Source: Escherichia coli | GTDB lineage: Bacteria > Pseudomonadota > Gammaproteobacteria > Enterobacterales > Enterobacteriaceae | Length of the DNA stretch: 64,000 nt | NCBI RefSeq assembly: GCF_003790525.1 | Contig: NZ_CP033635.1 | Strand: one strand, 5' to 3' | Shown: positions 1-47,762 of the stretch, one piece after another | How positions within the stretch are numbered: position 1 is the stretch's first letter | Layout: each line of letters opens with the position of its first letter | Program-made: the position numbers and the translations under genes | Notes under the pieces: generated by a model | Databases searched by the model: none | What the model saw: only the letters and a program-made list of their open reading frames with translations | What the model was told of the DNA's origin: nothing

Positions 1-549
1 CTGGGTTGTTAATAGATCAGGTTGCCAACTACCGACCAGGTAAATAGAAAGAAATAAGAAATAGGCAATCAATGGGAATACCAAAAATCCCATTACCCGA
101 ATGGTTGCATGGCGTCCCATCAGAAAAATGAGATTCAGGATTAATACAACCCCCAGACTCACCAACATACGGATGCGAAGATCAATAACCATATGCTTTG
201 CCAGCTGTTCTGTAAGTGAGTTGGTAATTGCCACTGCATATATCAACACGACGACAAAAAAGGCGATGAAGTACAGCGTGGTAATCAGATTACCAATCTT
301 CTTGCCATAGTAGTGTGTTACCGCGCCCGTTATCCCTTCACCTGCTGATGTTTTTGATGAGAGGATGAACTGGCATAAGGCTTTATGTGGCCAATATGTT
401 AAAGGCCAGGCGACCAGAGCAGTAATAAACAGGACCACAGCCCCTGCCGAACCTAACTGAATAGGAAGGAAGAGCGTGCCTGCACCAACGGCTGTGCCGT
501 AGAGCGCGAAACTCCACAGAGTTTCTTCTTTTGACCAAATATTAGACAT
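1..549 (-). CDS. yqeG: Putative amino-acid/H+ symporter YqeG, 5' part only (gene runs off the window start)
   Basis: Reverse-complement translation from the ATG at 547-549 reads MSNIWSKEETLW... and stays open to position 1; hydrophobic membrane-protein composition; position next to yqeF matches the K-12 order. Confidence 0.8.
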   Translation of the reverse strand, partial: MSNIWSKEETLWSFALYGTAVGAGTLFLPIQLGSAGAVVLFITALVAWPLTYWPHKALCQFILSSKTSAGEGITGAVTHYYGKKIGNLITTLYFIAFFVVVLIYAVAITNSLTEQLAKHMVIDLRIRMLVSLGVVLILNLIFLMGRHATIRVMGFLVFPLIAYFLFLSIYLVGSWQPDLLTTQ

Positions 550-803
550 TATCTGAACGTATCATCTACAAATTAAACAAAATGGAGGGCAATTTACCAT
601 AAACCAGGTTAAGTATGGGAGATTAACGCCCTATCTACCTCTCTATTGGTGGGTTAGTGGTTGCAAACCTTACGTGCCAGTTATGTCTCTGACTGCTACT
701 CAGGCGTATTTCCTTTGTGATAATAGTCACTTTTTTTAAACAATTAAGATAACTGTAATTAACAATCATTTACTATTGCACTGTTAATTGGTGCGAGGTT
801 GTG

Positions 804-1985
804 ATGAAAGACGTTGTGATTGTCGGGGCGTTACGGACACCTATCGGCTGCTTTCGTGGTGCGTTAGCGGGTCATTCCGCTGTGGAACTTGGCAGCCTGG
901 TCGTGAAAGCGTTAATAGAACGTACCGGCGTTCCTGCATATGCGGTGGATGAAGTAATTCTTGGTCAGGTGTTGACTGCAGGGGCAGGGCAGAATCCGGC
1001 AAGGCAATCGGCTATTAAAGGTGGTCTTCCTAACAGCGTTTCTGCAATCACTATTAATGACGTTTGCGGTTCCGGGCTTAAAGCACTGCATCTGGCTACT
1101 CAGGCGATCCAGTGTGGCGAGGCGGATATTGTCATCGCCGGTGGCCAGGAAAACATGAGCCGCGCACCACACGTTCTGACTGATAGCCGCACCGGTGCAC
1201 AGCTTGGCAATAGCCAGTTGGTTGATAGTCTGGTGCATGACGGCTTGTGGGATGCCTTCAATGATTATCATATTGGTGTCACCGCCGAAAATCTGGCTCG
1301 CGAATATGGCATCAGCCGTCAGTTGCAGGATGCTTACGCACTTAGCTCGCAACAAAAAGCGCGAGCGGCGATTGACGCCGGACGATTTAAAGATGAAATC
1401 GTCCCGGTAATGACCCAAAGTAACGGTCAGGCGTTGGTTGTTGATACCGATGAACAGCCACGCACTGACGCCAGTGCAGAAGGCTTGGCCCGTTTAAATC
1501 CTTCATTTGATAGTCTCGGTTCTGTGACAGCGGGTAATGCATCATCCATAAACGATGGCGCAGCTGCGGTAATGATGATGAGCGAAGCCAAAGCGCGAGC
1601 GTTGAATTTACCCGTGCTTGCCCGCATTCGCGCATTTGCCAGCGTTGGTGTAGATCCGGCATTAATGGGAATTGCGCCGGTGTATGCGACACGCCGTTGC
1701 CTGGAACGTGTCGGCTGGCAGTTGGCTGATGTCGATCTTATTGAGGCTAATGAAGCGTTTGCTGCTCAGGCGCTTTCGGTTGGCAAGATGCTTGAATGGG
1801 ATGAGCGTCGGGTCAATGTTAATGGTGGTGCGATCGCGCTCGGTCACCCAATAGGCGCGTCCGGTTGCCGAATCCTGGTTTCTCTGGTTCATGAAATGGT
1901 GAAACGTAATGCCCGCAAAGGACTGGCTACGCTTTGTATCGGCGGGGGCCAGGGCGTGGCATTGACCATTGAACGTGACGAATAG
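804..1985 (+). CDS. yqeF: Acetyl-CoA C-acetyltransferase (thiolase II family)
   Basis: ORF track 801..1985 (394 aa, GTG then ATG at 804); thiolase motifs (NDVCGSGL active-site Cys region, C-terminal GHPIGASGCR); starts MKDVVIVGALRTPIG as K-12 YqeF. Confidence 0.9.
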   Translation: MKDVVIVGALRTPIGCFRGALAGHSAVELGSLVVKALIERTGVPAYAVDEVILGQVLTAGAGQNPARQSAIKGGLPNSVSAITINDVCGSGLKALHLATQAIQCGEADIVIAGGQENMSRAPHVLTDSRTGAQLGNSQLVDSLVHDGLWDAFNDYHIGVTAENLAREYGISRQLQDAYALSSQQKARAAIDAGRFKDEIVPVMTQSNGQALVVDTDEQPRTDASAEGLARLNPSFDSLGSVTAGNASSINDGAAAVMMMSEAKARALNLPVLARIRAFASVGVDPALMGIAPVYATRRCLERVGWQLADVDLIEANEAFAAQALSVGKMLEWDERRVNVNGGAIALGHPIGASGCRILVSLVHEMVKRNARKGLATLCIGGGQGVALTIERDE

Positions 1986-2142
1986 CTCTGCATTTCCTCC
2001 TTACCGATAAATATCAGCCGTCATTAATCTGTTGAATAATGGTGGCTGGCGAGTCGACATACATTTTCAGGGCTCCCTGATTTTTCCATTCCCATGACAT
2101 ATTCGTGATCGACACTGCACTTTTTTCAGTCTTTACCTTAAA

Positions 2143-2161
2143 AATGAAACATTGTTTTATT
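2143..2161. promoter_or_regulatory. KdgR operator-like near-palindrome upstream of kduI
   Basis: AATGAAACATTGTTTTATT fits the KdgR box pattern AATRAAAYRNYRTTTYATT as I recall it; lies about 110 bp upstream of the kduI start. Confidence 0.5.
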
Positions 2162-2271
2162 TTTAATTGAAAACCCTATCCCGTGGGCATATCATCCCCT
2201 TATAGAGAAAACGAAACAGCGTTTCACTATCGTTTTCTATTTTCACGCTTCACTGATTATCGGAGGTTGAT

Positions 2272-3108
2272 GTGGACGTAAGACAGAGCATCCACAGTGC
2301 GCATGCAAAAACGCTGGATACCCAGGGGTTGCGCAATGAATTTTTGGTTGAAAAGGTATTTGTCGCCGATGAGTACACCATGGTTTACAGCCACATTGAC
2401 CGTATTATTGTTGGCGGCATTATGCCGGTAACTAAAACGGTTTCCGTTGGCGGGGAAGTTGGTAAACAACTCGGGGTAAGCTATTTCCTGGAACGTCGCG
2501 AGTTAGGTGTTATCAATATTGGCGGTGCCGGTACGATTACCGTCGATGGTCAATGCTATGAAATCGGTCACCGCGAAGCCCTGTATGTTGGTAAAGGCGC
2601 AAAAGAAGTTGTCTTTGCCAGTATTGATACCGCTACTCCGGCGAAGTTTTATTACAATTGCGCACCTGCGCATACGACGTATCCCACCAAAAAAGTCACA
2701 CCAGACGAAGTATCTCCAGTCACGTTAGGCGATAACCTCACCAGTAACCGTCGCACGATTAACAAATATTTTGTCCCGGATGTGCTGGAAACCTGCCAAT
2801 TGAGTATGGGGCTGACGGAGCTGGCTCCAGGTAACTTGTGGAACACCATGCCGTGTCACACCCACGAGCGCCGGATGGAAGTTTATTTCTATTTCAATAT
2901 GGATGATGACGCCTGCGTTTTCCACATGATGGGGCAGCCGCAAGAAACGCGTCATATTGTGATGCATAACGAGCAGGCGGTGATCTCCCCGAGCTGGTCG
3001 ATCCATTCCGGCGTCGGAACCAAAGCTTATACCTTTATCTGGGGCATGGTCGGTGAAAACCAGGTTTTTGATGATATGGACCATGTGGCCGTTAAAGATT
3101 TGCGCTAG
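2272..3108 (+). CDS. kduI: 5-dehydro-4-deoxy-D-glucuronate isomerase
   Basis: 278-aa ORF starting [20 protein letters not shown] (GTG start); matches K-12 KduI; followed 29 bp later by kduD. Confidence 0.9.
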
Positions 3109-3137
3109 TTGTGGGCATAAACGAATAAGGTATTGTT

Positions 3138-3899
3138 ATGATTTTAAGTGCATTTTCTCTCGAAGGTAAAGTTGCGGTCGTCACTGGTTGTGATACTGGG
3201 CTGGGCCAGGGGATGGCGTTGGGGCTGGCGCAAGCGGGCTGTGACATTGTTGGCATTAACATCGTTGAACCGACTGAAACCATCAAGCAGGTCACGGCGC
3301 TGGGGCGTCGTTTTTTAAGCCTGACCGCCGATCTGCGAAAGATTGATGGCATTCCAGCACTGCTGGATCGCGCGGTAGCGGAGTTTGGTCATATTGATAT
3401 CCTGGTGAATAACGCCGGATTGATTCGCCGCGAAGACGCTCTCGAGTTCAGCGAAAAAGACTGGGACGATGTCATGAACCTGAATATCAAGAGCGTATTC
3501 TTCATGTCTCAGGCAGCGGCGAAACACTTTATCGCGCAAGGCAATGGCGGCAAGATTATCAATATCGCGTCAATGCTCTCCTTCCAGGGCGGGATCCGTG
3601 TGCCTTCTTATACCGCATCAAAAAGCGGCGTGATGGGCGTGACGCGATTGATGGCGAATGAATGGGCTAAACACAACATTAATGTTAATGCGATAGCTCC
3701 GGGTTACATGGCGACCAACAATACTCAACAACTACGGGCAGATGAACAACGTAGCGCGGAAATTCTCGACCGCATTCCAGCTGGCCGTTGGGGACTGCCG
3801 AGTGACCTGATGGGGCCGGTAGTGTTTCTTGCCTCCAGTGCTTCAGATTATGTGAATGGTTATACCATTGCCGTGGATGGCGGTTGGCTGGCTCGTTAA
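3138..3899 (+). CDS. kduD: 2-dehydro-3-deoxy-D-gluconate 5-dehydrogenase (SDR family)
   Basis: 253-aa ORF with SDR Rossmann motif (VTGCDTGLG) and catalytic YTASK; matches K-12 KduD. Confidence 0.9.
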   Translation: MILSAFSLEGKVAVVTGCDTGLGQGMALGLAQAGCDIVGINIVEPTETIKQVTALGRRFLSLTADLRKIDGIPALLDRAVAEFGHIDILVNNAGLIRREDALEFSEKDWDDVMNLNIKSVFFMSQAAAKHFIAQGNGGKIINIASMLSFQGGIRVPSYTASKSGVMGVTRLMANEWAKHNINVNAIAPGYMATNNTQQLRADEQRSAEILDRIPAGRWGLPSDLMGPVVFLASSASDYVNGYTIAVDGGWLAR

Positions 3900-3920
3900 T
3901 CCATTCTTCTTACTTTTATG

Positions 3921-3946
3921 ACCCTGCCGCATGGCAGGGTTTTTTA
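3921..3946 (+). terminator. Intrinsic terminator after kduD
   Basis: Hairpin ACCCTGCC-gcatg-GGCAGGGT followed by a T-run, 22 bp after the kduD stop. Confidence 0.6.
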
Positions 3947-4213
3947 TACCTGTAGATCATCATAATCCATATCATGGTTATGAAATAATCCATATCAATT
4001 ATCAATTAATGAACTTTATGAATTTTATCTGCTTTAAAATTAGTTGGTTAATAATAATCTCAATAATTCAACTTAATTTGAAAATTGGAATATCCATCAC
4101 ATAACGACATGTCGCAGCAATTTAATCCATATTTATGCTATTTCCGACCTGACACCTGTGTGAATTGTTCACGTATTTTTTCACTATGTCTTACTCTCTG
4201 CTGGCAGGAAAAA

Positions 4214-5632
4214 ATGGTTACTATCAATACGGAATCTGCTTTAACGCCACGTTCTTTGCGGGATACGCGGCGTATGAATATGTTTGTTTCGGTAGCTGCT
4301 GCGGTCGCAGGATTGTTATTTGGTCTTGATATCGGCGTAATCGCCGGAGCGTTGCCGTTCATTACCGATCACTTTGTACTGACCAGTCGTTTGCAGGAAT
4401 GGGTGGTCAGTAGCATGATGCTCGGCGCAGCAATTGGTGCGCTGTTTAATGGTTGGCTGTCGTTCCGCCTGGGGCGTAAATACAGCCTGATGGCGGGGGC
4501 CATCCTGTTTGTACTCGGTTCGATAGGGTCCGCTTTTGCGACCAGCGTAGAGATGTTAATCGCCGCTCGTGTGGTGTTGGGCATTGCTGTCGGGATCGCG
4601 TCTTACACCGCTCCTCTGTATCTTTCTGAAATGGCAAGTGAAAACGTTCGCGGTAAGATGATCAGCATGTACCAGTTGATGGTCACTCTCGGCATCGTGC
4701 TGGCGTTTTTATCCGATACAGCGTTCAGTTATAGCGGTAACTGGCGCGCAATGTTGGGGGTTCTTGCTTTACCAGCAGTTCTGCTGATTATTCTGGTGGT
4801 CTTCCTGCCAAATAGCCCGCGCTGGCTGGCGGAAAAGGGGCGTCATATTGAGGCGGAAGAAGTATTGCGTATGCTGCGCGATACGTCGGAAAAAGCGCGA
4901 GAAGAACTCAACGAAATTCGTGAAAGCCTGAAGTTAAAACAGGGCGGTTGGGCACTGTTTAAGATCAACCGTAACGTCCGTCGTGCTGTGTTTCTCGGTA
5001 TGTTGTTGCAGGCGATGCAGCAGTTTACCGGTATGAACATCATCATGTACTACGCGCCGCGTATCTTCAAAATGGCGGGCTTTACGACCACAGAACAACA
5101 GATGATTGCGACTCTGGTCGTGGGGCTGACCTTTATGTTCGCCACCTTCATTGCGGTCTTTACGGTAGATAAAGCAGGGCGTAAACCGGCTCTGAAAATT
5201 GGTTTCAGCGTGATGGCGTTAGGCACTCTGGTGCTGGGTTACTGCCTGATGCAGTTTGATAACGGTACGGCTTCCAGTGGCTTGTCCTGGCTCTCTGTTG
5301 GCATGACGATGATGTGTATTGCCGGTTATGCGATGAGCGCCGCGCCAGTGGTGTGGATCCTGTGCTCTGAGATTCAGCCGCTGAAATGCCGCGATTTTGG
5401 CATCACCTGTTCGACGACGACAAACTGGGTGTCGAATATGATTATCGGCGCGACCTTCCTGACACTGCTTGATAGCATTGGCGCTGCCGGTACGTTCTGG
5501 CTCTACACTGCGTTGAACATTGCGTTTGTGGGCATTACTTTCTGGCTCATTCCGGAAACCAAAAATGTCACGCTGGAACATATCGAGCGCAAACTGATGG
5601 CAGGCGAAAAGTTGAGAAATATCGGCGTCTGA
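4214..5632 (+). CDS. araE: Arabinose:H+ symporter (MFS sugar porter)
   Basis: ORF 4085..5632; the true start is most likely the internal ATG at 4214 ([15 protein letters not shown]..., the K-12 AraE N-terminus); the upstream 43 codons are an in-frame extension. Confidence 0.9.
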
Positions 5633-5638
5633 TTTCAC

Positions 5639-5671
5639 GGGCCGGATGTGCTGTACATCCGGCCCTTTTTT
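5639..5671 (+). terminator. Intrinsic terminator after araE
   Basis: GGGCCGGATG-tgctgta-CATCCGGCCC followed by TTTTTT, immediately after the araE stop. Confidence 0.7.
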
Positions 5672-5760
5672 CGTTAATAGAGATTAGGCACCTGGCCGTT
5701 GAGGCGTTTGTCTCGTTCCTTATTCAGCCTTGTTGCGGTAACACACATCAGGAGAGAGGA

Positions 5761-6337
5761 ATGAAAACAATTGGTTTGCTGGGAGGAATGAGCTGGGAAT
5801 CCACTATTCCTTACTATCGTCTGATAAATGAAGGCATTAAACAGCGGCTTGGTGGGCTTCACTCTGCGCAAGTGCTGCTACATAGCGTCGATTTTCATGA
5901 AATAGAAGAGTGCCAGCGTCGCGGTGAGTGGGACAAAACCGGGGATATTCTGGCTGAGGCGGCGCTTGGCTTACAGCGGGCGGGCGCAGAAGGCATTGTG
6001 TTATGTACCAATACGATGCACAAAGTGGCGGATGCCATTGAGTCTCGTTGCTCTCTGCCTTTCTTACATATAGCGGATGCCACTGGACGTGCAATTACCG
6101 GGGCAGGAATGACTCGTGTGGCGCTGCTGGGTACGCGTTACACCATGGAACAGGATTTTTATCGCGGGCGGCTGACGGAACAATTTTCCATCAACTGTCT
6201 TATTCCTGAAGCGGATGAACGGGCGAAAATTAATCAGATTATTTTTGAAGAACTGTGTCTGGGGCAATTTACCGAAGCGTCACGCGCTTATTATGCGCAA
6301 GTGATTGCTCGCCTTGCAGAACAGGGCGCACAGGGCG
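5761..6337 (+). pseudogene. ygeA: ygeA (Asp/Glu-racemase family amino-acid racemase), 5' fragment interrupted by IS4
   Basis: ORF 5761..6354 reads [21 protein letters not shown]... up to ...AEQGAQG, then enters the IS4 left end where the last four codons and stop are IS-derived; the native continuation ([11 protein letters not shown]...) resumes after the element. Confidence 0.85.
6326..6337. repeat. 12-bp target-site duplication, left copy (GCGCACAGGGCG)
   Basis: Identical 12-mer directly abuts both ends of the IS4 element (6326-6337 and 7764-7775). Confidence 0.85.
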
Positions 6338-7763
6338 TAATGCCGATCAGTTAAGGATCAGTTGACCGATCCAGTGGCTGTGTAAGAATCCGGAAACGCT
6401 CACTTGTTTCCGGATTTTTTTATGCACATTGGACAGGCTCTTGATCTGGTATCCCGTTACGATTCTCTGCGTAACCCACTGACTTCTCTGGGGGATTACC
6501 TCGACCCCGAACTCATCTCTCGTTGCCTTGCCGAATCAGGTACTGTAACGCTACGCAAGCGCCGTCTTCCCCTCGAAATGATGGTCTGGTGTATTGTTGG
6601 CATGGCGCTTGAGCGTAAAGAACCTCTTCACCAGATTGTGAATCGCCTGGACATCATGCTGCCGGGCAATCGCCCCTTCGTTGCCCCCAGTGCCGTTATT
6701 CAGGCCCGCCAGCGCCTGGGAAGTGAGGCTGTCCGCCGCGTGTTCACGAAAACAGCGCAGCTCTGGCATAACGCCACGCCGCATCCGCACTGGTGCGGCC
6801 TGACCCTGCTGGCCATCGATGGTGTGTTCTGGCGCACACCGGATACACCAGAGAACGATGCAGCCTTCCCCCGCCAGACACATGCCGGGAACCCGGCGCT
6901 CTACCCGCAGGTCAAAATGGTCTGCCAGATGGAACTGACCAGCCATCTGCTGACGGCTGCAGCCTTCGGCACGATGAAGAACAGCGAAAATGAGCTTGCT
7001 GAGCAACTTATAGAACAAACCGGCGATAACACTCTGACGTTAATGGATAAAGGTTATTACTCACTGGGACTGTTAAATGCCTGGAGCCTGGCGGGAGAAC
7101 ACCGCCACTGGATGATACCTCTCAGAAAGGGAGCGCAATATGAAGAGATCAGAAAACTGGGTAAAGGCGATCATCTGGTGAAGCTGAAAACCAGCCCGCA
7201 GGCACGAAAAAAGTGGCCGGGACTGGGAAATGAAGTGACAGCCCGCCTGCTGACCGTGACGCGCAAAGGAAAAGTCTGCCATCTGCTGACGTCGATGACG
7301 GACGCCATGCGCTTCCCCGGAGGAGAAATGGCGGAACTGTACAGTCATCGCTGGGAAATCGAACTGGGATACAGGGAGATAAAACAGACGATGCAACTGA
7401 GCAGGCTGACGCTGAGAAGTAAAAAACCGGAGCTTGTGGAGCAAGAGCTGTGGGGTGTCTTACTGGCTTATAATCTGGTGAGATATCAGATGATTAAAAT
7501 GGCGGAACATCTGAAAGGTTACTGGCCGAATCAACTGAGTTTCTCAGAATCATGCGGAATGGTGATGAGAATGCTGATGACATTGCAGGGCGCTTCACCG
7601 GGACGTATACCGGAGCTGATGCGCGATCTTGCAAGTATGGGACAACTTGTGAAATTACCGACAAGAAGGGAAAGGGCCTTCCCGAGAGTGGTAAAGGAGA
7701 GGCCCTGGAAATACCCCACAGCCCCGAAAAAGAGCCAGTCAGTTGCTTAACTGACTGGCATTA
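6338..7763 (+). mobile_element. Insertion sequence IS4, complete copy (1426 bp)
   Basis: 18-bp terminal inverted repeats TAATGCCGATCAGTTAAG (6338-6355) and the reverse complement of CTTAACTGACTGGCATTA (7746-7763), one mismatch between them; single transposase ORF; flanked by a 12-bp direct repeat; length equals the known IS4 size. Confidence 0.9.
6422..7750 (+). CDS. insG: IS4 transposase (DDE family)
   Basis: 442-aa ORF from the ATG at 6422 ([19 protein letters not shown]...); the ORF track starts 18 bp earlier at a TTG. Confidence 0.9.
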
Positions 7764-7775
7764 GCGCACAGGGCG
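7764..7775. repeat. 12-bp target-site duplication, right copy (GCGCACAGGGCG)
   Basis: See left copy. Confidence 0.85.
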
Positions 7776-7891
7776 TCATTTTTGGCTGCACAGAAATTGG
7801 TTTACTGGTGCCAGAAGAGCGCAGTGTTCTGCCTGTGTTTGATACCGCGGCGATCCATGCCGAGGATGCTGTCGCTTTTATGCTGTCGTAG
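7764..7891 (+). pseudogene. ygeA: ygeA 3' fragment downstream of IS4
   Basis: In-frame continuation ...[41 protein letters not shown] ending at TAG 7889-7891; overlaps the convergent lysR 3' end. Confidence 0.8.
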
Positions 7892-8813
7892 CTGACGACA
7901 AAATAGCGTCAAGAGAAGTGACCAGTTTCGGTAATCCCGCTTGTAAATGCTCACTAAACGCCTGCACCAGCGCTGATGACGGGCGGTGCAGGGGGCGGAT
8001 CAGGCTGACAGTGAACGGAACCGCAATGCTGAACCGCCGCACCACTAAACCGCTTGCCGCATAATCCAGTGCGGTGAGTGGGTTAACTACCGAAACGCCT
8101 ACCCCCGCCCGTACCATTGCGCAGACTGACGCGGCGCTGTGGGTTTCTACGATCATGCGTCGTTTAACCTGATTCTCAGTAAACAATTGATCCAGGAACT
8201 GGCGATAGCTGTCAGTACGGGAAAGGCTGATGTAGTTTTCACCGTGAAAATCATCCGGCGTTAATACCTTTTTTACCGCCAGCGGATGGCCCGGAGGTAA
8301 CACACACACTTCATCTAAAGAGAGTAATTCGGTACGTTCTGTTCCCGCAGGCGTATGGAGTGTCTCAGTGAGTCCTAAATCATGACGCTGGGCCGAGAGC
8401 CACTCTTCAAGTAGCGGTGATTCCTGGGGCACGATGTTTAAGCTGACATCGGGATAACGTGCCAGAAAGGGTTGCAGGAGCTGCGGTAAAAAAGATTGCG
8501 AAAAGACCGGCAGGCAGGCAATAGACAGTTCTCCCTGGCGAAACTCGCGCAGACTTTCTGCGGCACTGACAATGCGATCCAGTCCGTACCAGGATCGTTG
8601 CACTTCTTCAAACAGACGCAGTCCTTGCACGGTAGGATGTAATCGTCCACGTATGCGCTCAAACAATTTCAGCCCGATAACCTTCTCAAAGCGCGCCAGT
8701 TCGCGGCTGACGGTTGGCTGTGAGGTGTGTAGCAGGTGTGCCGCCTCAGTCAGGCTTCCGGCGGTCATTACCGCATGAAAAATTTCAATATGACGTAAGT
8801 TAACGGCGGCCAT
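7878..8813 (-). CDS. lysR: LysR transcriptional activator of lysA
   Basis: 311-aa [31 protein letters not shown]... with N-terminal HTH; divergent from lysA. Confidence 0.9.
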
Positions 8814-8934
8814 TAGCGCTCTCTCGCAATCCGGTAATCCATATCATTTTTGCATAGACTCGACATAAATCGATATTTTTTATTCTTTTTATGATGTGGC
8901 GTAATCATAAAAAAGCACTTATCTGGAGTTTGTT

Positions 8935-10197
8935 ATGCCACATTCACTGTTCAGCACTGATACCGATCTCACCGCCGAAAATCTGCTGCGTTTGCCCGCA
9001 GAATTTGGCTGCCCGGTGTGGGTCTACGATGCGCAAATTATTCGTCGGCAGATTGCAGCGCTGAAACAGTTTGATGTGGTGCGCTTTGCACAGAAAGCCT
9101 GTTCCAATATTCATATTTTGCGCTTAATGCGTGAGCAGGGCGTGAAAGTGGATTCCGTCTCGTTAGGCGAAATAGAGCGTGCACTGGCGGCGGGTTACAA
9201 TCCGCAAACGCACCCCGATGATATTGTTTTTACGGCAGATGTTATCGATCAGGCGACGCTTGAACGCGTCAGTGAATTGCAAATTCCGGTGAATGCGGGT
9301 TCTGTTGATATGCTCGACCAACTGGGTCAGGTTTCGCCAGGGCATCGGGTATGGCTGCGTGTTAATCCGGGGTTTGGTCACGGGCATAGCCAAAAAACCA
9401 ATACCGGTGGCGAAAACAGCAAGCACGGTATCTGGTACACCGATCTGCCCGCCGCACTGGACGTGATACAACGTCATCATCTACAGCTGGTCGGCATTCA
9501 CATGCACATTGGTTCTGGCGTTGATTATGCCCATCTGGAACAGGTATGTGGTGCTATGGTGCGTCAGGTCCTCGAATTCGGTCAGGATTTACAGGCTATT
9601 TCTGCGGGCGGTGGGCTTTCTATTCCTTATCAACAGGGTGAAGAGGCGGTTGATACCGAACATTATTATGGTCTGTGGAATGCCGCGCGTGAGCAAATCG
9701 CCCGCCATTTGGGCCATCCTGTGAAACTGGAAATTGAACCGGGTCGCTTTCTGGTAGCGCAGGCTGGCGTATTAATTACTCAAGTGCGGAGCGTCAAACA
9801 AATGGGTAGCCGCCACTTTGTGCTGGTTGATGCCGGGTTCAACGATCTGATGCGCCCGGCAATGTACGGTAGTTACCACCATATCAGTGCCCTGACAGCT
9901 GATGGTCGTTCTCTGGAATACGCGCCAACGGTGGAAACCGTCGTCGCCGGGCCGTTATGTGAATCGGGCGATGTCTTTACCCAGCAAGAAGGGGGAAATG
10001 TTGAAACCCGCGTCTTACCGGAAGTGAAGGCGGGTGATTATCTGGTACTGCATGATACGGGGGCATATGGCGCATCAATGTCATCCAACTACAACAGTCG
10101 TCCGCTGTTACCAGAAGTTCTGTTTGATAATGGTCAGGCGCGGTTGATTCGCCGTCGCCAGACCATTGAAGAATTACTGGCGCTGGAATTGCTTTAA
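8935..10197 (+). CDS. lysA: Diaminopimelate decarboxylase
   Basis: 420-aa ORF; PLP fold III decarboxylase; matches K-12 LysA. Confidence 0.9.
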   Translation: MPHSLFSTDTDLTAENLLRLPAEFGCPVWVYDAQIIRRQIAALKQFDVVRFAQKACSNIHILRLMREQGVKVDSVSLGEIERALAAGYNPQTHPDDIVFTADVIDQATLERVSELQIPVNAGSVDMLDQLGQVSPGHRVWLRVNPGFGHGHSQKTNTGGENSKHGIWYTDLPAALDVIQRHHLQLVGIHMHIGSGVDYAHLEQVCGAMVRQVLEFGQDLQAISAGGGLSIPYQQGEEAVDTEHYYGLWNAAREQIARHLGHPVKLEIEPGRFLVAQAGVLITQVRSVKQMGSRHFVLVDAGFNDLMRPAMYGSYHHISALTADGRSLEYAPTVETVVAGPLCESGDVFTQQEGGNVETRVLPEVKAGDYLVLHDTGAYGASMSSNYNSRPLLPEVLFDNGQARLIRRRQTIEELLALELL

Positions 10198-11448: not shown

Positions 11449-11530
11449 CCCAGAGGTATTGATAGGTGAAGTCAACTTCGGGTTGAGCACATGAATTACA
11501 CCAGCCTGCGCAGATGCGCAGGTTTTTTTT
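11449..11530 (+). ncRNA. omrB: OmrB small RNA
   Basis: Starts CCCAGAGGTATTGATAGGTGAAGTC..., ends with GC-rich hairpin GCGCAGATGCGCAGG plus a T-run; shares 5' and 3' ends with the copy about 200 bp downstream; sits between galR and aas as in K-12. Confidence 0.85.
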
Positions 11531-11645: not shown

Positions 11646-11733
11646 CCCAGAGGTATTGATTGGTGAGATTATTCGGTACGCTCTTCGTACCCTGTCTCTT
11701 GCACCAACCTGCGCGGATGCGCAGGTTTTTTTT
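11646..11733 (+). ncRNA. omrA: OmrA small RNA
   Basis: Starts CCCAGAGGTATTGATTGGTGAGATTATTCGG..., ends with hairpin GCGCGGATGCGCAGG plus a T-run; paralog of omrB. Confidence 0.85.
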
Positions 11734-15204: not shown

Positions 15205-16860
15205 TCACATTCCCGAAGGGTGCATACCTTTCGGATACTTCACGCTGTATGAGAATGGCAGACTCACGTTCTCTTTACCTGACAGTTTCAGCGTCCAGGA
15301 CAGTTCACCCGTTTTCGCATCAAACTGCGCCTGACCATACTGCATTTTTTCCACCGTAATATCACTATTAGCACTGACTGGGATCTGGTCGAGCAGAGTG
15401 ATATCCACCGCGTCGCCGTAGCTGTTCTTTACATTAAGGGTGTAACTGAAGTTGCGCACCGCGCTGTCATTAAAGATAGATAACGCATTCTCTTTTTTGA
15501 GTACGGCTTTACGTTGAATAATCAGCTTGGGATCGCGGTTAAGCTGAATATCCAGCGACTTGCCATCTTCCGGCGGCTGCAAATAGCCCACGCCGGTACG
15601 ATTGTTACCAAAGAAGATCTGACTTTCGCCGGGGATTAAATTTAACTGTTCCCACTCTTTAATTTGCACCTGGAGATAAGCGTCATTACTGATCTTCGGA
15701 ATAGCAAAGAAGCGATATTCACCGCTGACCGATTCCTCCTTAATGACCACCGTGCGCGCGGTGTTGTCGCTGTCGATTTGCCACGGCAGCGAAAGCGCAT
15801 AGCGAACATTTTGCGCGGTGAAACTTTCTGGTCGCGCCGAAGCTGGTGCTGCCTGTGCGGCATACTTGCGCCCGGCTGGTCGCTCCCTTGATTTTTGCAT
15901 CTCTGCCTCCAGGGATTTCTGCAATTCTGATGCATCCTGGTCAGACGAATATTCCGAACGCTGTTTCATCACGGGTGTTGCTGAAAGCGAGCCGCTTACA
16001 CCACCATACTCAGTCACATCCACATACAGAGGTTCCAGGTGTGGCAGCGTGAGATGAGTATCAGGTTCACTGGTCGAGAGCACGAGATTAACGTTTTTCC
16101 ATGGCAACCCCGTATACTGGCGAATATTAGCCTTGTAAACCAGACGCAGCGGTTGGTTTATGCCCGTGGCGTGAATATCATAGATCGGCGTCCATGTAGC
16201 ATCAGGAGTTATATAATGCACCACCGCTTTCGCAGTGACGGCTTTTGGGACATATACCTTAGCGATGATAACCTGCGGATCATCGGATGCCTCTGAATCA
16301 CCGTTATTCATACTCTCGCGTTGCTCCAACTTTTCAATTCCAAGCTGGTTATCAGCAAGTTTCTGCGTCAACTCATTGTCAGCCCGTAATAACTCACCAT
16401 TTTTCTCTTTCACCATTTGCAGATACTTGCCAACTTCGGCGGCACTTTTATTGGTTAATGTGCTATTTGCCTCTAATACCTTAATTTGAGCCGCGATATT
16501 GTTTTTCTCGGCGGTCAGTTTTGCCTGTTCCACCTTTACTGCTTTTAACTGTTGCTGAGTATCTGACGGCAGCGCATTCGGCTGTGTTTCCATTAGCGCG
16601 ATACGTGAGGAAAGCACCGTCACTCCGTTATCGATAGAAATGGCGATGCTGTCGTCGGTTACCGAATTGGCGATATTAGTGAAAATAATTTCGCTTTCAC
16701 CTGCCGGTAAGTTGAGTGTCTCTTCACCTTGTAGGCTGGCACCATGCAGATAAACAGTGACGTCTTTGAGTGTTAGCGCTTGAGTTAACTGCGCCCCCCA
16801 GGCGGAGGACAGGCACCCGGTAAGCAACATGGCGAGGGGAATAGGTTTGAAAATCAACAT
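15205..16860 (-). CDS. Hypothetical secreted or lipo-protein with central coiled coil (DUF4139/DUF4140-like architecture, tentative); not recalled in K-12
   Basis: ORF track 15205..16875 (556 aa, TTG); likelier start is the ATG at 16858-16860 preceded by AAGGA (MLIFKPIPLAMLLTGCLSSAWGAQ...); N-terminal signal peptide with possible lipobox LTGC; heptad-like QQQLKAVKVEQAKLTAEKNNIAAQIKVLEAN...; domain assignment is from memory. Confidence 0.7.
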   Translation of the reverse strand: MLIFKPIPLAMLLTGCLSSAWGAQLTQALTLKDVTVYLHGASLQGEETLNLPAGESEIIFTNIANSVTDDSIAISIDNGVTVLSSRIALMETQPNALPSDTQQQLKAVKVEQAKLTAEKNNIAAQIKVLEANSTLTNKSAAEVGKYLQMVKEKNGELLRADNELTQKLADNQLGIEKLEQRESMNNGDSEASDDPQVIIAKVYVPKAVTAKAVVHYITPDATWTPIYDIHATGINQPLRLVYKANIRQYTGLPWKNVNLVLSTSEPDTHLTLPHLEPLYVDVTEYGGVSGSLSATPVMKQRSEYSSDQDASELQKSLEAEMQKSRERPAGRKYAAQAAPASARPESFTAQNVRYALSLPWQIDSDNTARTVVIKEESVSGEYRFFAIPKISNDAYLQVQIKEWEQLNLIPGESQIFFGNNRTGVGYLQPPEDGKSLDIQLNRDPKLIIQRKAVLKKENALSIFNDSAVRNFSYTLNVKNSYGDAVDITLLDQIPVSANSDITVEKMQYGQAQFDAKTGELSWTLKLSGKENVSLPFSYSVKYPKGMHPSGM

Positions 16861-42156: not shown

Positions 42157-42981
42157 ATGATCATCGAAAAAGTCATGAACAATAATTGTGTACAGGCATC
42201 GATGAATGGACAGGAGGTTATCATTTCTGGGCCTGGCGTCGGTTACAACAAAAAATATGGAATGTCGGTCCCTGAGCATCCGGCTAACCGGATTTTTTAT
42301 GTCAGAAATGAACAAAAAAATAAACTCTACAAATTGATTGAACATGTGGATATTGAGTATGTTTTTGTTGCCGAAAAAATAGTGCAATATGCGGAGAACA
42401 ATCTCGAAAAAAATCTCAATCCATCGCTACTATTGATTCTTGCTGATCACATTTCGAATGCAATATCCCGAGTCGCTTCAGGCATACAAATTAATAATGT
42501 TTTCCTTGATGAAATCAAAGCGTTGTACAAAGCAGAGTATGCGATAAGTCGCGATGCATTAACTATCATTAATGAGCAATTCAGCGTTCAACTTCCTGAT
42601 GATGAGATTGGTTTTATAGCATTGCATATTTTAAATAATTATGAAAATTCAGTTGATTATGAATCAGTACGGATTATTGAGTTGTCGCAAATAATCACGG
42701 GGCTTATTGAAGTTGTTTATAACAGAAAGGTGGACAGAAGTTCATTTAATTATTCCAGGTTCATGATACACCTTAAATATTTTTCAAGTCGCGTATTATG
42801 TAATGAAAAGATAAAACAAAAAGATATTGGTGACATCTATGAGCAGTTTCTTGAGAAAGACATCCTGTTACAGCGCGCAATTCATGAAATTGAACGGTAT
42901 CTGTATGCCACTTTTAAATATGAATTAATTTTAGAAGAAAAACTATATCTCTCAATTCGTACCAAAGTATTAATGGACTAA
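42157..42981 (+). CDS. BglG/LicT-family PRD-containing transcription antiterminator
   Basis: ORF track 42100..42981; start taken at the ATG at 42157; N-terminal CAT-like region (IEKVMNNNCVQASMNGQEVIISGPGVGY) and PRD regions with conserved His contexts (LPDDEIGFIALHIL, RFMIHLKYFSSRV) resembling BglG (LPKDEVGFIAMHL, RLVTHLKFLSWRI). Confidence 0.8.
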   Translation: MIIEKVMNNNCVQASMNGQEVIISGPGVGYNKKYGMSVPEHPANRIFYVRNEQKNKLYKLIEHVDIEYVFVAEKIVQYAENNLEKNLNPSLLLILADHISNAISRVASGIQINNVFLDEIKALYKAEYAISRDALTIINEQFSVQLPDDEIGFIALHILNNYENSVDYESVRIIELSQIITGLIEVVYNRKVDRSSFNYSRFMIHLKYFSSRVLCNEKIKQKDIGDIYEQFLEKDILLQRAIHEIERYLYATFKYELILEEKLYLSIRTKVLMD

Positions 42982-43012
42982 TTATATATAACATTTATAT
43001 GAGATAACCCAC

Positions 43013-44593
43013 ATGAAACAAAAGAAAGCCTGGAGTTTTTTTCAGAGCCTGGGAAAGGCATTCATGTATCCCATTGCTCTGCTAAGTGTATGTGGCATGA
43101 TGCTAGGGCTGGGAAGTGGTTTAGCCAGTGATGATATGGCAAAGTTAATTCCATTTCTGGCTATTCCAATAATTAAAACCATACTTGATTTCATTGTTAG
43201 TCTTGGTTTGTTTGCCTTTGTTAATTTACCTGTATTGTTTGCGATAGCGATTCCCTTAGGATTATTAAAAGATAAAGAGGATAAAGCCTATGGTGCTTTT
43301 TCTGGCTTAATTGGTTTTATGGCGATGCATCTGGGAACGAACTTTTATCTTAAACAGCACGACTTATTGGTCGCTGCTGACCAAATGTCGACACATGGGC
43401 AAACCATCATTCTGGGGATCCAGTCCTACAATACCAGCGTGTTAGGGGGAATTGTTGCTGGGTTATTAGTCGCCAGCATGTATAAAAAGATCGTTAATTT
43501 ACGCATTCCTGAATCATTAGGTTTTTATAGCGGCCCACGTCTGGTGCCTATCATTACACTGATTGTGATGAGTGGATTTGGTCTGATCATCCCTTTTATC
43601 TGGCCGCCGTTTTTCAATCTTTTCATGCTCATTGGCCACTGGATTTCAACTTCCGGTCCTGTTGGCTATTTTTTCTATGCAGTCGCCGAACGCGTGACGA
43701 TACCTTTTGGTTTAAATCACCTGGTGACGTCAGTTTTCCGCTTTACCCCCATCGGCGGATCGGCAGTGATCGGCGGCGAAGAGTATTATGGCACCCTGAA
43801 CATGTTTATGGCGTACGTCAAAGAGAATGCGGTCATTCCGCTGGATTTGGCGGGGAAAATGGAACAGGGCAAACTGATGATTCAGTATGGTCTGGCTGGT
43901 GCCGCGCTGGCGATGTATCGCACTGCTCATGCTCAAAACAGAAAAGCTATCAAAGCATTGCTTATTTCCGGGGTGCTTACAGTCATTATTGGCGGCGTCA
44001 GCGAACCGATTGAGTTTCTGTTCTTATTTGTCAGTCCACTGCTGTTTGTCTTCCATGCATTTATGAATGGATTCGCCAACATGGTCTTGCCATATATGGG
44101 CGTGAAGATGGGATTTACTGGCGATCTGATTCAATTTATTAGCTTTGGCGTATTGCGTGGCACAAGAACAGGTTGGCCAATAGCGGTGTGTGTCGAAGTG
44201 GCCTATTTCTTTATTTATTACTTTGTGTTCCGTTGGACTATTCTCAAATTTAACCTGATGACGGTAGGCCGTGAAGAGTCCAGTCCTGTCACGCTGAACG
44301 CTCATGAGGATACGGCTATAGCGGATATCCCAACTCCTGATAAATCAGAGCTGCAAGCGGCGGAGCAGATGGTTAAGGCACTTGGTGGTAAAGAGAATAT
44401 TAAGTCACTGGATAATTGCGTAACTCGTTTACGTTTAACAATCGCAGATATGGGATTGCTTGACGAGGCTGCAATAAAAAGAGCCGGCGGAATTGCGGTT
44501 GTTAAACTTGATCAAAATACCCTACAAGTCATTATCGGTACTAAAGTCATCGCCTTGCGTCGGGATATGGATAACTACATGGGGATATGCTGA
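43013..44593 (+). CDS. PTS glucose-family EIICB component, MalX-like
   Basis: 526-aa polytopic ORF with C-terminal EIIB motif NCVTRLR; collinear similarity to K-12 MalX (SYDLGKAFMYPIALLS vs FQQLGKTFMLPVALLS; EPIEFLFLFVSP vs EPLEFLFLFVAP). Confidence 0.85.
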   Translation: MKQKKAWSFFQSLGKAFMYPIALLSVCGMMLGLGSGLASDDMAKLIPFLAIPIIKTILDFIVSLGLFAFVNLPVLFAIAIPLGLLKDKEDKAYGAFSGLIGFMAMHLGTNFYLKQHDLLVAADQMSTHGQTIILGIQSYNTSVLGGIVAGLLVASMYKKIVNLRIPESLGFYSGPRLVPIITLIVMSGFGLIIPFIWPPFFNLFMLIGHWISTSGPVGYFFYAVAERVTIPFGLNHLVTSVFRFTPIGGSAVIGGEEYYGTLNMFMAYVKENAVIPLDLAGKMEQGKLMIQYGLAGAALAMYRTAHAQNRKAIKALLISGVLTVIIGGVSEPIEFLFLFVSPLLFVFHAFMNGFANMVLPYMGVKMGFTGDLIQFISFGVLRGTRTGWPIAVCVEVAYFFIYYFVFRWTILKFNLMTVGREESSPVTLNAHEDTAIADIPTPDKSELQAAEQMVKALGGKENIKSLDNCVTRLRLTIADMGLLDEAAIKRAGGIAVVKLDQNTLQVIIGTKVIALRRDMDNYMGIC

Positions 44594-45768
44594 TGGATGT
44601 TTTTAATACTCCTATTTCCCGCAAAGGAACATATTGTACCCAATGGGACTTTTGCGAGGACAGATTTGGTGTAAAAGATGTATTACCATTCTCTATTTCA
44701 GATATGGATCTTCCGATACCAGACGCTATCACCAGAGCATTAAAAAAACGTCTGGAACACCCGATTTTAGGGTACAGCCGTTGGCAGCATGATGACTATC
44801 TGAATGCGATAGTCAATTGGTATCATCAACAATATAAAACTGAAATCAAACCAGAATGGATCACCTATAGCCCAAGCGTGATGTACTCCATTGCTAAAGC
44901 AATAGAGTTATTGACATCGCATGGTGATAATATTCTCGTTTTTACACCTGTCTATAATGCATTTTTTGATATAATTAAACATAGCGAGAGAAATATTCTG
45001 ACAGCCTCTTTGATTATAAAAAATGAGGGGGGCTACGCTATCAATTGGCAAGATTTTGATCTTAAGATTCAAAGCGCAAAGATGGTGTTATTATGTAATC
45101 CTCATAACCCGACAGGAACAGTCTGGTCGGAAGAAGAACTGCATAAAATCGCTGCAAGCTGTACAAGGCATAATGTCTGGTTATGTTCAGATGAAATCCA
45201 TAGTGATTTTGTTTTTAATCGTAGCTTTACATCCGCGCTTAAAATAAAAAAAGAAAAAGTAGTAGTATTTAACTCGATATCGAAAACATTTAATGTTCCT
45301 GCACTAACAGGATCGTATATGATTTCAACTGACGATAATTTTAATCATAAGTTCAGAACGATATCGAGGTATCGCGATTTTGTAAACTCCCCATCAGTAC
45401 TGAATATAATTGCAACTATTATTGCCTATAACGAATGTGAGGGATGGTTAAAGTCATTAAAGGCACATATTGCCTCTAACATTCAATTCACCCAGCAGTA
45501 TCTGAACGAAAACACTCCAGAATTGATCGTAAGGCCAGCTGATGGTTGCTATTTTTCGTGGATAGATTGCTCTGCTATTGGTTATCCCTTTGATGAATTC
45601 TACAGTCGATTAATTCATGAAGGCAAAGTGGGCATTATGGCGGGGAATGTCTATGGAACGGAGGGGGAGGGCTACCTTCGTCTGAACCTGGCCTGCGGTC
45701 GAGAAAAATTATATATGGGGCTTACGCGTCTTGCGAGTGTAATTAAAAATATTAATCAAGGAAAATAA
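44587..45768 (+). CDS. PLP-dependent C-S lyase / aminotransferase class I-II, MalY-like
   Basis: 393-aa ORF overlapping the PTS stop; GTYCTQWDF vs MalY GTWCTQWDY; PLP-lysine context SISKTFNVPALTG vs MalY SGSKSFNIPALTG. Confidence 0.85.
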   Translation: MLMDVFNTPISRKGTYCTQWDFCEDRFGVKDVLPFSISDMDLPIPDAITRALKKRLEHPILGYSRWQHDDYLNAIVNWYHQQYKTEIKPEWITYSPSVMYSIAKAIELLTSHGDNILVFTPVYNAFFDIIKHSERNILTASLIIKNEGGYAINWQDFDLKIQSAKMVLLCNPHNPTGTVWSEEELHKIAASCTRHNVWLCSDEIHSDFVFNRSFTSALKIKKEKVVVFNSISKTFNVPALTGSYMISTDDNFNHKFRTISRYRDFVNSPSVLNIIATIIAYNECEGWLKSLKAHIASNIQFTQQYLNENTPELIVRPADGCYFSWIDCSAIGYPFDEFYSRLIHEGKVGIMAGNVYGTEGEGYLRLNLACGREKLYMGLTRLASVIKNINQGK

Positions 45769-45770
45769 AA

Positions 45771-46367
45771 ATGAACAGCACGGATCTTATCCATCTCATT
45801 AAACATTTTATGCGTAACGAACATAAAGCAGTTGAAGAAGTTATTGATTCCCCCCTTTCGGAGGTCGCAAATTTAATTAAAGTATTACAGTCTTGTCAGG
45901 GGAAAGTTGTTTTTATTGGTGTCGGTAAGTCCGGTATTATTGCCCGAAAACTCGCCGCAACATTTGCCAGCACTGGAACTCCCTCGTTTTTTGTTCACGG
46001 TACGGAAGCGGTACACGGCGACCTTGGAATGGTGGCGAAAGACGATGTTGTTATTCTTATTTCAAACAGTGGTGAGACGGCGGAAATCCTGGCGACACTG
46101 CCTAGTCTGAAAAAAATGGGTAATTATTTGATCTCTTTTACACGCAGTCATCACTCATCGCTTGCGATAAGTTGTGATTTATCCGTTGAAATTCCCGTAA
46201 AAAGTGAGGCGGATAATTTAGGTTTAGCGCCGTCATGCTCATCAACAGTCGTTCTGGTTGTTGGTGATGCGGTGGCGCTTGCGCTCTCCGAATTGAAAAA
46301 GTTTACTCGTGCTGATTTCGGCTTATATCATCCAGGAGGTGCGCTCGGTATTAAAGCAAACTCATAA
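45771..46367 (+). CDS. SIS-domain sugar-phosphate isomerase (KdsD/GutQ-like, no CBS domains)
   Basis: 198-aa ORF; GVGKSGIIARKLAATFASTGTPSFFVH and LISNSGETAEIL closely resemble the SIS core of arabinose-5-phosphate isomerases. Confidence 0.75.
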   Translation: MNSTDLIHLIKHFMRNEHKAVEEVIDSPLSEVANLIKVLQSCQGKVVFIGVGKSGIIARKLAATFASTGTPSFFVHGTEAVHGDLGMVAKDDVVILISNSGETAEILATLPSLKKMGNYLISFTRSHHSSLAISCDLSVEIPVKSEADNLGLAPSCSSTVVLVVGDAVALALSELKKFTRADFGLYHPGGALGIKANS

Positions 46368-46429
46368 TTTCAAAATATAAATACAGTAACCGGTCACGCC
46401 ATCTTTTGGGGTGGCGTTCTTTGAAGTGA

Positions 46430-47386
46430 GTGTCAGCTATGAAAAATGTTCTGGTCACCGTCCCCAGCTTTTCAGCACGCTGTGTTTCCGCCAGCAAGTT
46501 GCTAAGAGAGAATAATTTTAATCTTATTATTAAGAATAATGTGGAGCATCTGCTTAAATCAGAATCCACTGCATTACGAGAATCTATTTGCGCGGTCATC
46601 GCCGGAAAAGATTGTTATCAGGCGGACACGCTATCATTGCTGTCTGGTGTGAAAATAATATCGAGATTCGGGACGGGGATAGACAATATTGATCTTCGTG
46701 CGGCACAGCAATCCGGTATTGTTGTCAATAATGCGGTTGGGATTAATTCAAATGCGGTTGCGGAATTTATCATTGGACTTATCTTCGCGAGCATGAGAAA
46801 TATCCCCGGTAGCTATCATGCGATGCAAAATGGTTATTGGGGCGAGTCGCATGGCTGCGAGTTACAAGGTAAACGTATTGGCCTGCTTGGCTACGGCAAT
46901 ATTGGCAAAACACTGGCGAAAAGGTTATCTGGTTTTGATGTTGAGCTTTTAGCTTTTGACAAACAACCCGATTTCCAGGCCGCAGGCAAAGATGGAGTTC
47001 AGTTCGTATCAATTGAAGATATCTTTATGCAGTCTCATGTCATCATCGTTCTTTTGCCATTTTCTCCGGAGCTGGAGAACTTCATTAGTCATAAATATTT
47101 GTCGATGATGCGCAATGGTGCTCTGATCATCAACGCCGCAAGGGGAAAGTTGCTGGATGAGGGTGCTTTACTTCAGGTAATTGAAGAACGAAATGTTTTT
47201 GCAGCACTGGATGTGTTTAGCTCTGAACCGCTAGCGCAATTTAGCCCATTGCTACATGCCAAGAATATCATTACAACGCCGCATATTGCGGCCGCCACCG
47301 TTGAGTCATACCAGCAAACCGGGATATACGTTGCCCAGTCGATAATTGATTACTTCGCAGGAAGGGAGATAAAAAACGTGCTGTGA
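46430..47386 (+). CDS. D-isomer-specific 2-hydroxyacid dehydrogenase family protein (NAD-binding)
   Basis: 318-aa ORF with dinucleotide-binding motif GLLGYGNIGKTLAKRL and family-typical C-terminal TPHIAAAT. Confidence 0.75.
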   Translation: MSAMKNVLVTVPSFSARCVSASKLLRENNFNLIIKNNVEHLLKSESTALRESICAVIAGKDCYQADTLSLLSGVKIISRFGTGIDNIDLRAAQQSGIVVNNAVGINSNAVAEFIIGLIFASMRNIPGSYHAMQNGYWGESHGCELQGKRIGLLGYGNIGKTLAKRLSGFDVELLAFDKQPDFQAAGKDGVQFVSIEDIFMQSHVIIVLLPFSPELENFISHKYLSMMRNGALIINAARGKLLDEGALLQVIEERNVFAALDVFSSEPLAQFSPLLHAKNIITTPHIAAATVESYQQTGIYVAQSIIDYFAGREIKNVL

Positions 47387-47464: not shown

Positions 47465-47541
<77 letters not shown>

Positions 47542-47575
47542 TCACCGTACTGCTTTTACTTCATCAAATTTTGAT

Positions 47576-47652
<77 letters not shown>

Positions 47653-47685
47653 TCACCGTACTGCTTTACTTCATCAAATTTTAAT

Positions 47686-47762
<77 letters not shown>

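Follow-up and report, generated by a model that had tools for sequence, protein, structure and literature searches.

An IS4 insertion splitting ygeA marks one sub-lineage of Escherichia coli that includes ST648 and ST1485 isolates

The 64,000-nt stretch of Escherichia coli DNA analyzed here (hereafter, the window) carries a complete IS4 element within ygeA, which very probably results from one insertion in an ancestor of a sub-lineage including ST648 and ST1485 isolates, from which the strain of the window inherited it. The ygeA::IS4 allele is already known, in that RefSeq annotates an IS4 transposase flanked by the two fragments of a ygeA pseudogene and that 40 public complete genomes carry it; in our search of the literature, no paper mentioned both ygeA and IS4. 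What we add is that a single inherited event marks a sub-lineage, that the IS4 variant appears to have been active elsewhere in that lineage, and that the insertion site conforms to the target preference of the element. The insertion itself is a textbook, ordinary IS4 insertion and matters little beyond bookkeeping.

Structure and identity of the IS4 element

The element occupies positions 6338–7763 on the plus strand (1426 bp). It is bounded by 18-bp terminal inverted repeats, the left one at 6338–6355 on the plus strand (TAATGCCGATCAGTTAAG) and the right one at 7746–7763 on the minus strand (reverse complement TAATGCCAGTCAGTTAAG). The two arms match at 16 of 18 positions (89%), the two adjacent mismatches being GA versus AG. 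The initial annotation of this DNA had described a 1426-bp element with 18-bp inverted repeats within 6326–7775, and both lengths were recovered on re-measurement; its count of a single differing base between the arms was corrected to two by the alignment.

IS4 is the type element of the IS4 family. When the element was aligned with the feature “insertion sequence:IS4” of K-12 MG1655, 1,421 of 1,426 positions were identical (99.65%) over the full length and without gaps, and this near-identity along the whole element, together with the NCBIfam and Pfam assignments of its transposase, bears out its initial naming as IS4. The five substitutions are all internal (IS positions 903, 995, 999, 1061, and 1089), and because the differences are confined to positions 903–1089, the ends of the K-12 IS4 are also the ends of the element in the window. 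The IS4 subgroup is described as comprising elements of 1,400–1,650 bp with ends of the form -AATR--------WTW---- and direct repeats of 10–13 bp (PMC2266710, Table 1). The element in the window has a length of 1426 bp, a 12-bp duplication, and fitting ends, with AATG at positions 2–5 and TTA at positions 14–16 of the left end. Copies 100% identical to it were found in many E. coli genomes, and full-length IS4 copies (coverage of at least 80%) occurred in 2,479 of 5,426 complete E. coli genomes.

The element contains an InsG-type transposase gene at 6422–7750 on the plus strand, which starts with ATG and encodes 442 amino acids followed by a stop codon. The single 442-amino-acid ORF reported initially was thus found to be uninterrupted from start to stop; the same frame is also open from a TTG codon at 6404 (448 amino acids), and it is this longer version that PGAP annotates. 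Pfam assigned Nterm_IS4 to residues 18–109 and DDE_Tnp_1 to residues 126–352, and the NCBIfam model transpos_IS4_1 matched with 304.6 bits (cutoff, 115). The hallmarks of the IS4 family are a D(60–110)D(100–150)E triad, a Y(2)R(3)E(6)K motif, and a transposase encoded by a single ORF (PMC2266710). All three were observed: the catalytic residues, assigned by motif and located inside the DDE_Tnp_1 match, are D133, D209, and E314, separated by 75 and 104 residues, respectively, the YREK motif is formed by Y307, R310, E314, and K321 (residues 307–321), and a single ORF encodes the whole protein.

Several putative regulatory features accompany the gene. A sigma-70 promoter-like site at 6362–6389 on the plus strand, within the left end of the element (TTGACC-16-AAGAAT, with TG in front), is a candidate transposase promoter by consensus match only; the region contains two such sites versus 1.7 expected, a count that is weak taken alone. 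An inverted repeat at 6384–6421 on the plus strand forms a stable hairpin followed by a U-run (U7) that ends directly before the transposase ATG. Its predicted folding energy is −23.5 kcal/mol (z = −5.8), and none of 200 shuffled sequences folded as well. This hairpin is a candidate terminator-like or translation-occluding structure, and would face transcription arriving from ygeA. At the right end, a terminator-like hairpin with an 11-pair stem and a T-run (tail TCTTTTTCGG) lies at 7734–7759 on the minus strand, where it would face transcription coming from the lysR side. Such inward-facing hairpins at both ends of the element would be expected to insulate the transposase gene against outside transcription.

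Target-site duplication and disruption of ygeA

The element is flanked by two intact copies of the 12-bp sequence GCGCACAGGGCG, at 6326–6337 on the left and 7764–7775 on the right, in agreement with the duplicated 12-mer noted initially. No further copy exists in the 64 kb, where 0.02 copies would be expected by chance, and two copies were found in none of 100 shuffled sequences. The 13th base (T) also matches on both sides of IS4. Because the ends are symmetrical (TAATGCC...GGCATTA), and in keeping with the canonical length, we assigned this extra T to the element, which makes the duplication 12 bp.

The insertion divides ygeA into a 5′ part at 5761–6337 on the plus strand, comprising codons 1–192 and the first two bases of codon 193, and a 3′ part at 7776–7891 on the plus strand, running from the last base of codon 193 to codon 230 and the stop codon. 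The 3′ end of the gene is overlapped by lysR, which is intact, convergent with ygeA, and located at 7878–8813 on the minus strand. As the initial annotation had it, the frame is split after the AQG codons and resumes past the element: deletion of positions 6338–7775 (IS4 and one repeat) restored an ORF of 230 amino acids, of which 229 were identical to the protein of PDB entries 5HQT and 5ELL. The interrupted ORF (5761–6354) enters IS4 and stops at 6352–6354, giving a product of 197 amino acids that ends in ...AQGVMPIS and includes four IS-encoded residues. In other words, the truncated product consists of YgeA residues 1–193 followed by MPIS, V193 being retained by chance with GTA in place of GTC. 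The NCBIfam aspartate/glutamate racemase model NF007569 matched this ORF over residues 1–194 of 230. The 3′ fragment encodes VIFGCTEIG..., including Cys197, and has no start codon of its own. PGAP describes the same structure in strain XDL as “ygeA, incomplete, missing C-terminus” with an “IS4-like element IS4 family transposase” next to it, and the stretch corresponding to 7766–7891 as [quoted passage not shown]

The catalytic residues of YgeA (EcL-DER) are Thr83 and Cys197 (PMC12838360, PMC12661438), and the C197S variant was reported to be inactive (PMC12838360). A full-length YgeA with both catalytic residues, as expected of an NF007569 member, is not encoded in the window; because the codon for Cys197 lies solely in the detached 3′ fragment, the locus is a ygeA pseudogene. 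Given truncation before Cys197 and the reported inactivity of C197S, the sequence strongly implies that the racemase activity of YgeA has been lost in the strain bearing the insertion, and the initial suggestion that the strain probably lacks this activity is therefore sound. Homoserine is the preferred substrate of YgeA, a broad-spectrum racemase of low efficiency (PMC8142540). It reportedly acts as a homoserine racemase with effects on D-homoserine levels, growth, and biofilm formation, and its deficiency is reported to alter the latter two (PMC12838360, citing Miyamoto 2022).

Distribution and origin of the insertion

When 200-nt queries spanning each junction were searched against 5,426 complete E. 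coli genomes, the two junctions were found in one identical set of 40 genomes. The carriers came from several continents; humans, poultry (chickens), cattle, dogs, and a pangolin were among the hosts, and surface water was a further source. Sequence types, taken from the literature, were available for three of the 40: CFSAN061771 and M160133 are ST1485 of phylogroup F (PMC9630279), and EM10-18-28 is ST648 (PMC8350485), phylogroup F being documented for ST1485.

The sequences next to the element were confined to the same genomes. The left flank (2,337 bp) and the right flank (1,700 bp) were present at an identity of at least 99.9% in exactly the 40 carriers among the 5,426 genomes, and the best genomes with an empty site reached 99.8% on the left and 99.6% on the right. 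We then aligned seven IS-bearing and four empty-site loci with the window. Six of the seven IS-bearing loci had zero or one substitution relative to the window from position 1 to approximately 9500, IS4 included, the locus of M160133 having two single-base gaps besides; that of CFSAN061771 was identical over 4001–9500 and rearranged beside an IS1 further to the left. The four empty-site loci, in contrast, differed from the window in each 500-bp bin as far as the site of insertion. Across the whole window, strain XDL (NZ_CP043033.1) differed at three of 64,000 positions. The initial description of the insertion as relatively recent holds on an evolutionary scale, given almost no substitutions in 9.5 kb among the carriers that were compared, but not in the sense of an event private to one strain, since there are 40 carriers.

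Further from the element, the carriers were less uniform. In the 22-kb right flank, the 40 genomes fell into several haplotypes beyond lysA: CFSAN061771, M160133, Z30, and HCM-27C-1, the group with the ST1485 isolates, diverged abruptly inside lysA (at approximately position 9500 of the window, about 1.7 kb to the right of the element), and FDAARGOS_1285 diverged at approximately 13000 (about 5 kb to the right). These sharp breakpoints show the pattern that recombination would give. Given this divergence of the flanks, homologous recombination could have contributed, beside vertical descent, to the spread of the ygeA::IS4 allele; spread of this kind would still imply one insertion event.

Several other explanations of these observations were weighed. 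That the flanking 12-mers are native to ygeA, or that the whole structure is an assembly artefact, has a negligible probability. We found no support for it beyond a slight self-similarity, CAGGGCG at 6322–6328 being partly like the 12-mer. When the empty site was reconstructed as a 300-nt sequence and searched in the 5,426 complete genomes, it was uninterrupted in 5,382 of them, in many cases at 100% identity. The 12-mer is thus single-copy in native ygeA; the duplication, which the initial annotation would have had to give up had it been present in uninterrupted ygeA, is absent there, and a native repeat is ruled out. Against an artefact, each of 40 independent complete assemblies contained both junctions with 100% identity. 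It is likewise highly improbable that the 12-mer of ygeA is a hotspot at which the 40 genomes acquired IS4 independently, with an identical orientation and duplication. This idea was prompted by the haplotypes of the 22-kb flank, which split the carriers beyond lysA, and it gains something from the marked target preference of IS4-type elements, most of which the ygeA site fits. It was rejected once the near flanks (2.3 kb on the left and 1.7 kb on the right) proved to be exclusive to the carriers, with no empty-site genome sharing them at the same identity. Moreover, the IS4 copies at ygeA were identical or one base apart among the carriers, and the insertion was seen in no other lineage of the 5,426 genomes despite a nearly universal target sequence. 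Because the near-flank haplotype is exclusive to the 40 carriers, a single ancestral event, rather than a repeatedly used hotspot, is the preferred explanation.

A different question is whether this one insertion was favored by selection, such that an advantage of losing YgeA accounts for its persistence across hosts and continents. The range of hosts and sources of the carriers would suit such a history, as would the rarity of ygeA loss, the site being intact in 99.2% of genomes, and the changes in growth and biofilm formation upon ygeA deficiency mentioned above (PMC12838360, citing Miyamoto 2022). However, hitch-hiking in a successful clone accounts for the distribution equally well, the phenotypes reported for ygeA deficiency are defects and not gains, the catalytic efficiency of YgeA is very low (PMC8142540), and among the 5,426 genomes, there was no sign of convergent loss at the site in other lineages. 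We therefore regard selection for the loss as unlikely, and slightly more doubtful still is the specific proposition that altered handling of D-/L-homoserine or altered biofilm formation aided the spread of this multi-host, multidrug-resistant sub-lineage, which includes isolates of ST648 and ST1485. The reading that we retain, one inherited insertion, has practical uses of its own: the two junctions can serve as a clean marker, amplifiable by PCR, for one sub-lineage with ST648 and ST1485 isolates among its members, and the lineage supplies natural ygeA-null strains for studying the poorly understood role of YgeA in D-/L-homoserine metabolism.

Target preference and mechanism of insertion

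To describe the target preference of IS4, species-representative genomes were scanned with the 24-nt left end of the element, which yielded 34 stretches in eight other genera; the scan of these genomes returned no Escherichia records. After one flank identical to the K-12 site had been excluded, 32 unique left flanks from seven other genera were profiled. Most of the scanned copies were cut at the ends of draft contigs, and the comparison hence consists of a left-flank profile and a few complete sites. At positions −20 to −16, A was present in 24, 23, 28, 26, and 21 of the 32 left flanks; C or G predominated at −14 to −12, and G was present in 23, 18, and 25 flanks at −4, −3, and −1, respectively. 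In complete copies, the duplication was followed after a few bases by a T-run, and several sites resembled terminator hairpins, such as AAAAAAAACACCCGCTTCAGGCGGGTGTTTTTT. The duplications that could be measured were 11, 12, 12, 12, 12, 12, and 13 bp long.

AAA-N20-TTT is the target consensus of IS4 known from the literature of the 1980s, and the K-12 and ygeA sites agree with it. The K-12 site reads AAA-N20-TTT and the ygeA site AAC-N20-TTT, the latter with A at −18 and −17, G at −4, −3, and −1, and TTTTT at +4 to +8. On these features, the ygeA site is a reasonable, though imperfect, IS4 target. Against the fit, its location is within a coding region, it does not resemble a terminator, and its match to the A-run is partial (AAC instead of AAA).

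Transposases of the IS4 family make staggered cuts in the target about one helical turn apart and join the element to them by a cut-and-join reaction (PMC2266710). By the same route, IS4, as an element with a DDE transposase, would have entered ygeA by cut-and-paste: the transposase would have cut the target 12 bp apart and joined the ends of IS4 to the cuts, and repair of the gaps would then have duplicated GCGCACAGGGCG. From the anatomy of the site and what is known of the family, we infer that the 12-bp duplication is probably the footprint of this staggered-cut reaction. Insertion at residue 193 of 230 parts Thr83 from Cys197; the resulting 197-amino-acid product should be catalytically dead, and the 3′ remnant of ygeA is left without a promoter or a start codon.

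Mobility of the IS4 variant

The element in the window is structurally intact: it has its two ends, a transposase gene that is open and encodes the DDE and YREK motifs, and a hairpin at either end. Two further copies in the carrier lineage showed no differences from it in 1426 positions, each with a 12-bp duplication of its own and each in an A-run/T-run context: one between ravA and kup in CUVET19-1396 and one inside fiu in M160133. Carrier genomes had IS4 at two to about eight places, versus one in K-12. Because identical copies with their own duplications occur at other loci, these data indicate that the variant has transposed recently in the carrier lineage, and they lend indirect support to the initial suggestion that the element is possibly still mobile. 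In K-12, IS4 is an element of low activity: of 758 new insertions that arose in mutation-accumulation lines, it accounted for 8 (PMC5009759). An element nearly silent in K-12 thus appears, judging from identical copies elsewhere, to have been active in the carrier lineage.

Comparison with known systems

The closest known counterpart of the element is the IS4 of K-12 (insG, b4278; NC_000913.3, 4502090–4503515), which has the same 1426 bp, identical 18-bp ends down to the two mismatches, a single-ORF transposase of 442 amino acids, and a 12-bp target duplication of its own. The two differ in location, the element of the window being in ygeA and that of K-12 between yjgZ and nanX, and in three amino acids of the transposase. 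These differences from K-12 InsG (A304G, E305D, and L326R) sit close to the YREK motif, and none falls on a motif residue; the presence of identical copies at several loci argues that they are probably tolerated.

The disrupted gene corresponds to YgeA/EcL-DER, a PLP-independent racemase of the Asp/Glu type with known structures (5HQT and 5ELL). The restored protein has the same length and a single difference, T98S. Unlike the intact enzyme, the gene in the window is split at codon 193, so that its 5′ product keeps Thr83 and has lost Cys197 with the last 37 residues. The same ygeA::IS4 structure, with identical junctions, orientation, and duplication, is found in XDL (NZ_CP043033.1), CFSAN061771 (NZ_CP042896.1), and EM10-18-28 (NZ_CP063476.1). 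The differences are of no substance: XDL has one substitution inside IS4 (position 7336 of the window), and in M160133, the single-base gaps are annotated as frameshifts in the transposase gene and lysR.

Recombination and gene content around the ygeA::IS4 allele

Comparison of the genomes carrying the ygeA::IS4 allele showed that divergence to the right of the insertion switches sharply at two points of the window, approximately 9500 (inside lysA) and approximately 13000 (inside aas). The number of differences rose from 0 to approximately 6–14 per 500 bp, from approximately 9500 in the ST1485 group (CFSAN061771, M160133, Z30, and HCM-27C-1) and from approximately 13000 in FDAARGOS_1285. These two switches mark recombination breakpoints close to ygeA::IS4. 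Gene content also varies on this side of the element. A gene encoding a DUF4139-domain protein (positions 15205–16860, minus strand), lying between lplT and tas, was found in the window and in XDL, E50, elppa9, and AH04, and was missing at this locus from the ST1485 group, FDAARGOS_1285, SMS-3-5, CFT073, and MINF_1A; the gene is thus a presence/absence polymorphism located 7.4 kb from the IS4 insertion.

To the left of the insertion, the CFSAN061771 locus (L004, approximately 5700–7700, just left of window position 4000) has a copy of IS1A and a truncated sigma-54-interaction-domain gene adjoining araE, and its xdh/actS/yqeG segment runs in the opposite orientation to that of the other carriers; this IS1-associated rearrangement lies 2.3 kb away from IS4. 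In the six IS4-bearing genomes without a rearrangement there, and likewise in CFT073, xdhA-actS-tRNA-Gly directly adjoins yqeG, and CFSAN061771 has this segment too, in reversed orientation; the positions concerned (1–4300 of loci L005–L010) fall outside the window, to the left of yqeG. In SMS-3-5, MINF_1A, and AH04, yqeH-family or type III secretion remnant genes occupy the place of xdhA-actS-tRNA-Gly beside yqeG. The ygeA::IS4 lineage thus lacks the region containing these remnant genes.

Within the element, window position 7336 (IS position 999) is T in the ygeA-IS4 copy of strain XDL, as in the K-12 IS4, and A in the window and seven other carriers; the T in XDL arose either by point mutation or by gene conversion between IS4 copies. 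Just inside each IS4 end lies a strong hairpin followed by a U/T run and facing incoming transcription, at 6384–6421 on the plus strand (left end) and at 7734–7759 on the minus strand (right end). The left hairpin stops directly 5′ of the transposase ATG, for which no obvious Shine-Dalgarno sequence was seen.

Elsewhere in the window, a five-gene block (positions 42157–47386, plus strand) between amiC and a triplet of tRNA-Met genes (47468–47762, minus strand), which it adjoins, encodes a PRD-domain regulator, a PTS EIIC, a MalY/PatB-family protein, a KpsF/GutQ-family isomerase, and a phosphoglycerate dehydrogenase. Because no such genes are known between amiC and the tRNA-Met triplet in K-12, the block probably constitutes a small accessory island for sugar utilisation. 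The two OmrA/B small RNAs between galR and aas (11449–11530 and 11646–11733, plus strand) and the GcvB small RNA adjoining gcvA (52087–52292, minus strand) are all ordinary and at their expected places.

Target sites and distribution of IS4-like elements in other genera

A target profile was drawn from the sequences lying to the left of IS4-like elements from eight other genera (L015–L048, 34 stretches sharing the 24-nt IS4 left end), together with loci L001, L049, and L050. The profile upstream of the left end was strong, with an A-run from −20 to −16, then a C/G-rich stretch, and G at −4, −3, and −1; in complete copies, a T-run lay a short distance past the 11–13-bp duplication. Since several of the targets resemble terminator hairpins (for example, AAAAAAAACACCCGCTTCAGGCGGGTGTTTTTT at L038), terminator-like sites seem to be preferred by the IS4-like element.

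A scan of species-representative genomes for the 24-nt left end returned no Escherichia records. The draft genome of Kosakonia oryziphila REICA_142 (L020–L035) contained the exact left end in 16 stretches on 16 contigs, and the flanks of all 16 differed from one another, which suggests a large expansion of an IS4-like element in this strain. In Methylobacterium mesophilicum NBRC 15688, the left end occurred on a 265-bp contig (L018, NZ_BPQU01000128.1), which probably represents E. coli K-12 DNA contaminating the assembly; the 30 nt 5′ of its left end (ATAGTTTGTTACAAACACCAGAACCAAGAT) are identical to the resident IS4 site of E. coli K-12.
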